This document shows positions 58,441 to 58,540 of a DNA stretch of 64,000 nucleotides, in pieces. Each line of letters begins with the position of its first letter. Positions within the stretch are counted from its first letter, which is position 1. The DNA comes from Escherichia coli (GTDB taxonomy: Bacteria; Pseudomonadota; Gammaproteobacteria; Enterobacterales; Enterobacteriaceae), in NCBI RefSeq assembly GCF_041886205.1, contig NZ_CP169029.1; one strand, written 5' to 3'. The translations under genes and the position numbers were made by a program. The notes beneath the pieces were generated by a model. It did not search any database. It was not told where the DNA came from and saw nothing but the letters and a program-made list of their open reading frames with translations.

Positions 58441-58540
58441 GCCGGATGCGGCGTAAACGCCTTATCCGGCCTACAAAGTATTGCAAATTCAACAAATTGT
58501 GAATCCCTTGTAGGCCTGATAAGTATGGCGCATCAGGCAC
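58441..58540. repeat. BIME: two REP units in opposite orientation between pepB and sseB
   Basis: gccggatgcggcgtaaacgccttatccggcctac followed by gtaggcctgataagtatggcgcatcaggc. Confidence 0.6.

Follow-up and report, generated by a model that had tools for sequence, protein, structure and literature searches.

REP and BIME elements at three gene junctions in a 64-kb region of Escherichia coli

REP units in the window

The window analyzed here, a stretch of 64,000 nucleotides of Escherichia coli DNA, is collinear with the 2.65-2.70 Mb region of K-12 MG1655 in reverse orientation. The genes that flank the elements of interest are purL (17576-21463, + strand), the convergent yphB (39092-39964, +) and yphA (- strand, stop codon at 40012-40014), and the co-directional pepB (57149-58432, +, stop codon at 58430-58432) and sseB (58575-59351, +). 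The 601 nt around the pepB/sseB site are 100% identical to several non-K-12 E. coli chromosomes, in which the genes annotated at this place are pepB and sseB. REPs are short imperfect palindromes thought to be spread as single-stranded DNA by TnpA(REP)/RAYT, a Y1 HUH transposase encoded elsewhere, and the cataloguing of REP and BIME elements in E. coli goes back about forty years.

We scanned the window with class-specific Y and Z1 consensuses and their half-sites, and additionally with blastn-short. The Y, Z1 and Z2 consensus strings were validated only by exact recurrence in a K-12 sample (eight 50-kb pieces, 399 kb in total), so that recurrence at other loci serves as the independent check; the exact Y 35-mer was found again at five further unlinked loci of this sample. 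Consensus matches were obtained at all three junctions where REP units had been predicted, with coordinates within 1-4 nt of the predicted ones: 35/35 and 27/30 for the two units after pepB (site A), 30/31 between yphB and yphA (site B) and 30/35 after purL (site C). There were no matches to the Y or Z1 consensus in 100 shuffles. All three sites are extragenic, lying between ORFs.

Within the window, the exact half-site GCCGGATGCGGCG occurs at sites A, B and C only, and neither the consensus and half-site scans nor blastn-short revealed any further REP unit, so the predicted list of three loci is complete for this stretch. A Z2 unit was likewise sought by consensus scan and blastn-short, and no match was found in the window. 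In the 399 kb of K-12, blastn-short detected 48 near-full REP units, which is consistent with the 584-697 units per E. coli genome given in the literature (PMC3333891; bioRxiv 10.64898/2026.03.23.713779). No Rfam family lies over any of the three sites at the gathering threshold, the RefSeq feature table for K-12 lists no REP features, and the text of the RepRanger supplement mentions none of these genes. Elsewhere in the window, the Rfam matches at gathering score at 5290-6121, 8905-9119, 12532-12596, 21797-21944 and 51984-52093 (AsrC, rncO, ohsC, GlmY and the iscRS stability element) are those expected for a K-12-like region.

The BIME-1 between pepB and sseB

The pepB/sseB intergenic region is 142 nt long and contains one Y-L-Z1 copy, not a tandem array. 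Judged by its sequence, site A is a textbook BIME-1, and the two inverted units foreseen downstream of pepB do form a BIME, with a Y unit (-) and a Z1 unit (+) separated by a 35-nt linker. The Y unit (58440-58474, - strand) matches the Y consensus at 35/35 positions, with no such match in the shuffled sequences; on the - strand it reads GTAGGCCGGATAAGGCGTTTACGCCGCATCCGGCA, and the pepB mRNA strand carries the inverted form ending in CTAC. The distance from the pepB stop codon to its stem is 8 nt, and in the predicted hairpin (-21.3 kcal/mol, z -4.9) the internal mismatch is kept. The Z1 unit (58510-58539, + strand), which has a GTAG head, matches its consensus at 27/30 positions owing to three changes in the upper stem and loop, whereas the K-12 allele matches at 30/30. 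The Z1 hairpin is weak in the window (-11.6 kcal/mol, z -1.2, vs -12.9 kcal/mol for the K-12 allele), and this second hairpin may therefore add little. The GTAG/CTAC heads of both units face each other across the linker, and when the RNA of the whole intergenic region is folded, the two units can pair together instead of forming separate hairpins. No T-run is present, and a reading of the pepB BIME as a terminator was therefore rejected.

The L linker (58475-58509) aligns with those of other BIME-1 elements in K-12. Its conserved core, GCAAATTCAACAAATTG at 58483-58499, is a 17-mer that occurs once in the window (0.00 expected) and is also found in other BIME-1 linkers; the linker core GCAAATTCAAYAWATTG is likewise unique in the window and common to other K-12 BIME-1 linkers. 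We aligned the window element with six Y-Z1 pairs from the K-12 sample, namely those at pepB, glyA/yphH, glxK/allE, the fliC 3′ region, yqeA/yqeB and trpS. Five of the six have a homologous linker of 34-36 nt with the core GCAAATTCAAYAnATTGCAA, while in the trpS pair the linker is shorter and 7 nt of the core are absent. The copy in the fliC 3′ region shows that a BIME-1 can form part of a 3′-UTR-derived sRNA, as the K-12 FliX sRNA (segment L005, 1912-2106) overlaps a complete BIME-1 (Y at 1967-2001, Z1 at 2038-2067).

These features can be compared with the Bachellier/Gilson classification as summarized by Ton-Hoang et al. (2012; PMC3333891), in which BIME-1 elements (the RIP/RIB elements) consist of Y and Z1 in inverse orientation, in single copy, with a conserved long L linker. 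Site A has the same arrangement, with Y and Z1 heads facing a conserved 35-nt linker in a single extragenic copy at the 3′ end of a gene, and it shares its architecture and linker core with the K-12 copies at glyA/yphH, the fliC 3′ region, yqeA/yqeB and glxK/allE. It differs from its K-12 counterpart by the three Z1 substitutions and several more in the linker, and from the BIME-1 pattern in that it lies between co-directional, co-regulated genes and not at a clear end of transcription. Tandem BIME-2 elements (Z2 and Y units with short linkers), the preferred gyrase target, occur at the same junctions in other strains, as an array at trmJ/iscR in K-12 and as a Z2-Y pair at yphB/yphA in SCU-116, but the window holds neither a Z2 unit nor a tandem array. 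Site A also resembles the REPINs, REP doublets mobilized by REP-associated tyrosine transposases (RAYTs), in that its two inverted REPs flank a spacer, an arrangement proposed as the mobile unit; it differs from them in being fixed species-wide at pepB/sseB.

The original prediction also named IHF and gyrase as potential ligands of the elements. An IHF-like 13-mer, ATTCAACAAATTG, is located at 58487-58499 within the linker, with one mismatch to the consensus WATCAANNNNTTR. However, the IHF consensus is not enriched in the window (65 found vs 48.7 expected) and the linker match is not significant alone, so we rejected it as independent evidence and relied on linker homology instead. An IHF site is attributed to the L linker of BIME-1 alone, and L frequently carries one (PMC3333891); putative IHF binding at site A therefore rests on membership of this family. 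The IHF part of the claim would thus apply to the BIME-1 linker only. Gyrase affinity, in contrast, is reported to be higher for BIME-2 than for BIME-1 (PMC1475751); high affinity is a BIME-2 trait, and the window has no BIME-2, as no Z2 unit was found in it.

Across E. coli, the BIME at pepB/sseB was detected in 5424 of 5426 complete genomes. Presence was scored as a place covering at least 80% of a 201-nt query around site A, a coverage that is impossible without most of the BIME, and site A is thus fixed at this locus across the species, with no sign of recent mobility there. Per E. coli genome, the same query matched 28 places in the median. The main differences among alleles are in the linker and loops, including the several linker substitutions between the window and K-12, while stems and GTAG heads are invariant in four of the five aligned alleles. 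The fifth is a 24-nt deletion allele that has lost the left arm of the Y unit and is present in about 250 genomes (253 records at an identity of at least 99%). This deletion is bounded by two copies of the 10-mer CGGCGTAAAC, one at 58425-58434, spanning the pepB stop codon, and one 24 nt downstream at 58449-58458, in the Y REP loop; the 10-mer occurs three times in the window vs 0.22 expected. Weakened Z1 stems were seen in other lineages.

Several differences from K-12 were observed around this locus. The pepB-sseB-ryfA segment (window 57130-59831) is 95.9% identical to K-12 vs 98.5-98.9% in the rest of the window, and this lower identity suggests a recombined or faster-evolving patch. Part of the ryfA region (59638-59831) aligns to two K-12 places, near ryfA/timP and near timR, indicating a segment that is duplicated in K-12 and present as one copy in the window; Rfam places a single ryfA at 59350-59654 in the window. 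On the other side of pepB, the iscX/pepB intergenic region is about 120 nt longer in K-12 (segment L001, 6360-6536) than in the window (57091-57148). The K-12 region contains the element GTGAGTGAAGCCCCAGGAGC...GTGACTGGGGTGAACGAGCG, presumably ERIC/IRU-like, and the window has only a short hairpin, GGGCTGCC...GGTAGCCCGTTTT.

Decayed Y units at yphB/yphA and after purL

Site B is a single "headless" Y-type REP (39973-40006, + strand) between the convergent genes yphB and yphA. Positions 39975-40005 match positions 5-35 of the Y consensus at 30/31 places, and AAAT is found at 39971-39974, where GTAG would be expected. The description of these elements as canonical is therefore apt for the pepB site and overstated for this one, in which the GTAG head is absent. 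The stem keeps its mismatch (AA/GC), and the predicted hairpin is stable on both strands (-22.9 or -26.1 kcal/mol, z -5.5 and -6.1), with the stem 8 nt from the yphB stop codon and 5 nt from that of yphA. Site B is identical in K-12, and a window-like structure of the junction is present in 4209 of 5426 genomes. In SCU-116, by contrast with this single unit, the junction carries a REP remnant (AAATGCCGGATGCAC...GGCCTAC), then an inverted Z2 unit and, after a short linker, a Y unit complete with its GTAG head; a deletion between the two GCCGGAT repeats present there would yield exactly the window allele. Such a deletion would explain the missing head. On this comparison, which covers E. coli strains, site B probably lost its GTAG by deletion within a larger REP array, with expansion as the alternative direction.

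Site C, in the 3′ region of purL, is a degenerate Y-type REP (21484-21518, + strand; 30/35 to Y, counted from the sequence) that reads GCAGCCCGGATGCGGCATTTACGCCGCATCCGGCA. The original prediction had already called it degenerate, and this is borne out: GCAG stands in place of GTAG and CCCGG in place of GCCGG, although the right half matches Y at 18/18 positions. Positions 21488-21517 form a perfect palindrome with no internal mismatch, and the predicted hairpin has a free energy of -24.3 kcal/mol (z -5.2). Its stem lies about 23-26 nt from the purL stop codon. By megablast, site C matches a median of one place per genome, its own locus only, being too diverged to match other copies. The alleles of RM14723 and EC31 are nearer to Y (GATGAGGC...). 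A stretch of 18 nt is missing at this site from K-12 and another, in a different register, from OkiPb01695, from which it follows that the palindrome has collapsed independently at least twice. From representative rows, we estimate that about half of the genomes have the intact palindrome and about a third a deleted form. An intrinsic-terminator-like hairpin of purL with a T-run (21540-21571, + strand; 8-bp stem, loop of 6, tail TTTTGTGTCT) lies 21 nt downstream of site C and is conserved in all aligned alleles. Site C is, as read from these alleles, a decaying relic that still forms a stable predicted hairpin, located in the purL 3′ UTR ahead of the actual terminator.

Isolated units are not exceptional, as 84 of the 584 REPs of K-12 are singletons (PMC3333891). 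Sites B and C resemble single Y-type REPs (PUs) in being isolated Y-like palindromes in 3′ intergenic DNA, and B also keeps the AA/GC mismatch; they depart from this type in that B is without the GTAG head and C has GCAG, CCCGG and a perfect stem. These changes bear on mobility. TnpA(REP) binding and cleavage require GTAG and the stem mismatch, and GTAG, GC-to-TT and AA-to-GC mutants are inactive, with binding and cleavage lost both when GTAG was mutated and when the stem was made perfect, as by the AA-to-GC change (Ton-Hoang et al., PMC3333891). The GTAG head is present in both site A units and replaced by AAAT at site B and GCAG at site C, and the stem mismatch appears in the folds of sites A and B and not at site C. 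With their altered heads or stem, both B and C fail the published binding requirements, and only the two site A units keep the sequence prerequisites and are potential TnpA(REP) substrates. Site B is probably invisible to the enzyme, and site C, with a mutated head, is in effect also an AA-to-GC mutant, so that we read both as immobile relics.

Strain differences in REP content were also found at junctions where the window has no unit. K-12 carries a BIME-1 at glyA/yphH and a threefold BIME-2 array at trmJ/iscR, neither of which exists in the window. At glyA/yphH, K-12 has a complete BIME-1 downstream of glyA (segment L001, 34096-34245) where the window (28894-28909) has only 14 nt, followed by a shared hairpin, AAGGCTTCCTTCGGGAAGCCTT. 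At trmJ/iscR, the window (51192-51314) has a different GC-rich repeat with the core GGTCCCCTCGCCCCTTCGGGGAGAGGGTTAGGGTGAGGGGAA in place of the BIME-2 array; near-identical cores occur in K-12 at ygfF/gcvP and frlR/yhfS, and we take this repeat to be probably of the BoxC family. The sole insertion sequence found in the window is a 768-bp IS1 (31032-31799; 97% identity to IS1A of K-12), inserted in yphG relative to K-12, with a direct repeat of about 8-9 bp, GAAAAATC, on its flanks. This IS1 does not lie at a REP and hence does not illustrate the suggestion that REPs are IS targets.

Possible effects on expression and the turnover of REP repeats

The analysis established what these elements are by sequence, how they are built, in how many copies they occur, how they are distributed in the population and which hairpins are predicted for them; every functional effect is inferred from the literature. 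A REP that follows a stop codon by fewer than 16 nt can reduce translation of the gene before it, according to section 8 of PMC12306157, which cites Liang et al. (2015). In a 2026 preprint, a model REP worked as a partly Rho-dependent terminator and also stabilized the upstream mRNA; REP effects were strongly context-dependent, with no general effect on mRNA half-life (bioRxiv 10.64898/2026.03.23.713779). By analogy, the same kinds of effect (on termination, mRNA stabilization and translation) may apply to the copies described here, whose Y hairpins have predicted energies of -21 to -26 kcal/mol (z -4.9 to -6.1). The Y hairpin on the pepB mRNA would be a barrier to 3′-5′ exonucleases and could act as a partial brake on read-through, favoring pepB over sseB; its position no more than 15 nt from the stop codon of pepB may also reduce the translation of PepB. 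The convergent transcripts of yphB and yphA would have the site B hairpin in common at their 3′ ends. At the DNA level, putative IHF binding at site A is ascribed to the L linker.

These elements had been proposed to mark operon boundaries. That description is in keeping with the location of sites B and C in 3′ regions, but it probably does not apply to pepB/sseB. No promoter-like or terminator-like site was found between these two genes, and joint derepression of iscX, pepB and sseB is reported for iscR mutants of both E. coli and Yersinia (PMC4055776, citing Giel et al.). Given the shared direction of the genes, the lack of such a site between them and the joint IscR response, the BIME is more likely internal to a transcription unit, and it probably acts within this co-regulated unit as a differential-expression element and not as a boundary marker. 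A more specific version, that the Y hairpin tunes PepB output through ribosome stalling or protection of the mRNA 3′ end and sets the ratio of pepB to sseB where the isc locus ends, is speculative, and we hold it to be rather doubtful. If it were true, REP decay alleles such as the 24-nt deletion and the weak Z1 stems would be a source of heritable expression variation at pepB/sseB.

Among the alternatives, we give most weight to the possibility that the sites are true REP members but selectively neutral passengers, with no measurable effect on pepB, sseB, yphB, yphA or purL, which persist because deletion is slow. Presence, absence and decay are indeed frequent, as seen in the K-12 clusters at glyA/yphH and trmJ/iscR that are missing from the window, the two deletions of the purL unit, the roughly 250 genomes without the left arm of the pepB Y unit and the wide variation in linker and loops, and the absence of a uniform REP effect on mRNA half-life points the same way. 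However, the near-universal retention of the pepB/sseB BIME (5424/5426 genomes) and the invariance of its stems and GTAG heads in four of five aligned alleles are not what neutrality would suggest; at 5-8 nt from stop codons, strong hairpins are as close as those reported to influence translation, and genome-wide, more canonical REPs correlate with biased expression in the literature. We therefore regard neutrality as possible but not probable. A main role for site A on DNA, whether through IHF binding or bending at the L linker or as a supercoiling barrier between pepB and sseB, with the RNA hairpins incidental, appears unlikely. The L core is the most family-specific part of the element and is conserved across unlinked BIME-1 copies, and the frequent IHF site in L (PMC3333891) would fit such a role, but at pepB/sseB strains differ most in the linker and conserve the stems, the match to the IHF consensus is imperfect, and no chromosome-organizing role emerged for the model element REP325 from Hi-C and nucleoid studies. 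That the three sites are locus-specific terminator or stabilizer hairpins merely resembling REPs, and not dispersed repeats, is hardly credible: all three do lie in 3′ regions with stable folds, and site C matches one place per genome just upstream of a real intrinsic terminator, but no T-run follows any of the three hairpins, sites A and B have exact or near-exact counterparts at many unlinked loci (in each E. coli genome, the queries that hold them hit a median of 28-29 places), which refutes this reading for both, and the 30/35 match of site C to Y, closer still in the RM14723 and EC31 alleles, greatly exceeds what chance would give for a 35-mer in 128 kb.

We are thus highly confident that the three sites are ordinary copies of the known E. 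coli REP/BIME family, in different states of decay. The identification as REPs is correct and, as the original prediction itself said of these elements, it is not novel, since it matches a known family and adds nothing new to it. Set against K-12 and 5,426 genomes, this one 64-kb stretch nevertheless displays the REP family in every stage of its life, from a fixed and intact BIME-1 through a beheaded single unit left from an array and a relic eroding by hairpin-sized deletions to clusters that are present or absent by strain. The three sites illustrate the gain, trimming and loss of REP repeats between strains. They support REP turnover as a source of 3′-UTR variation between strains, and they supply natural alleles with which the effects of REPs on pepB and sseB can be tested.
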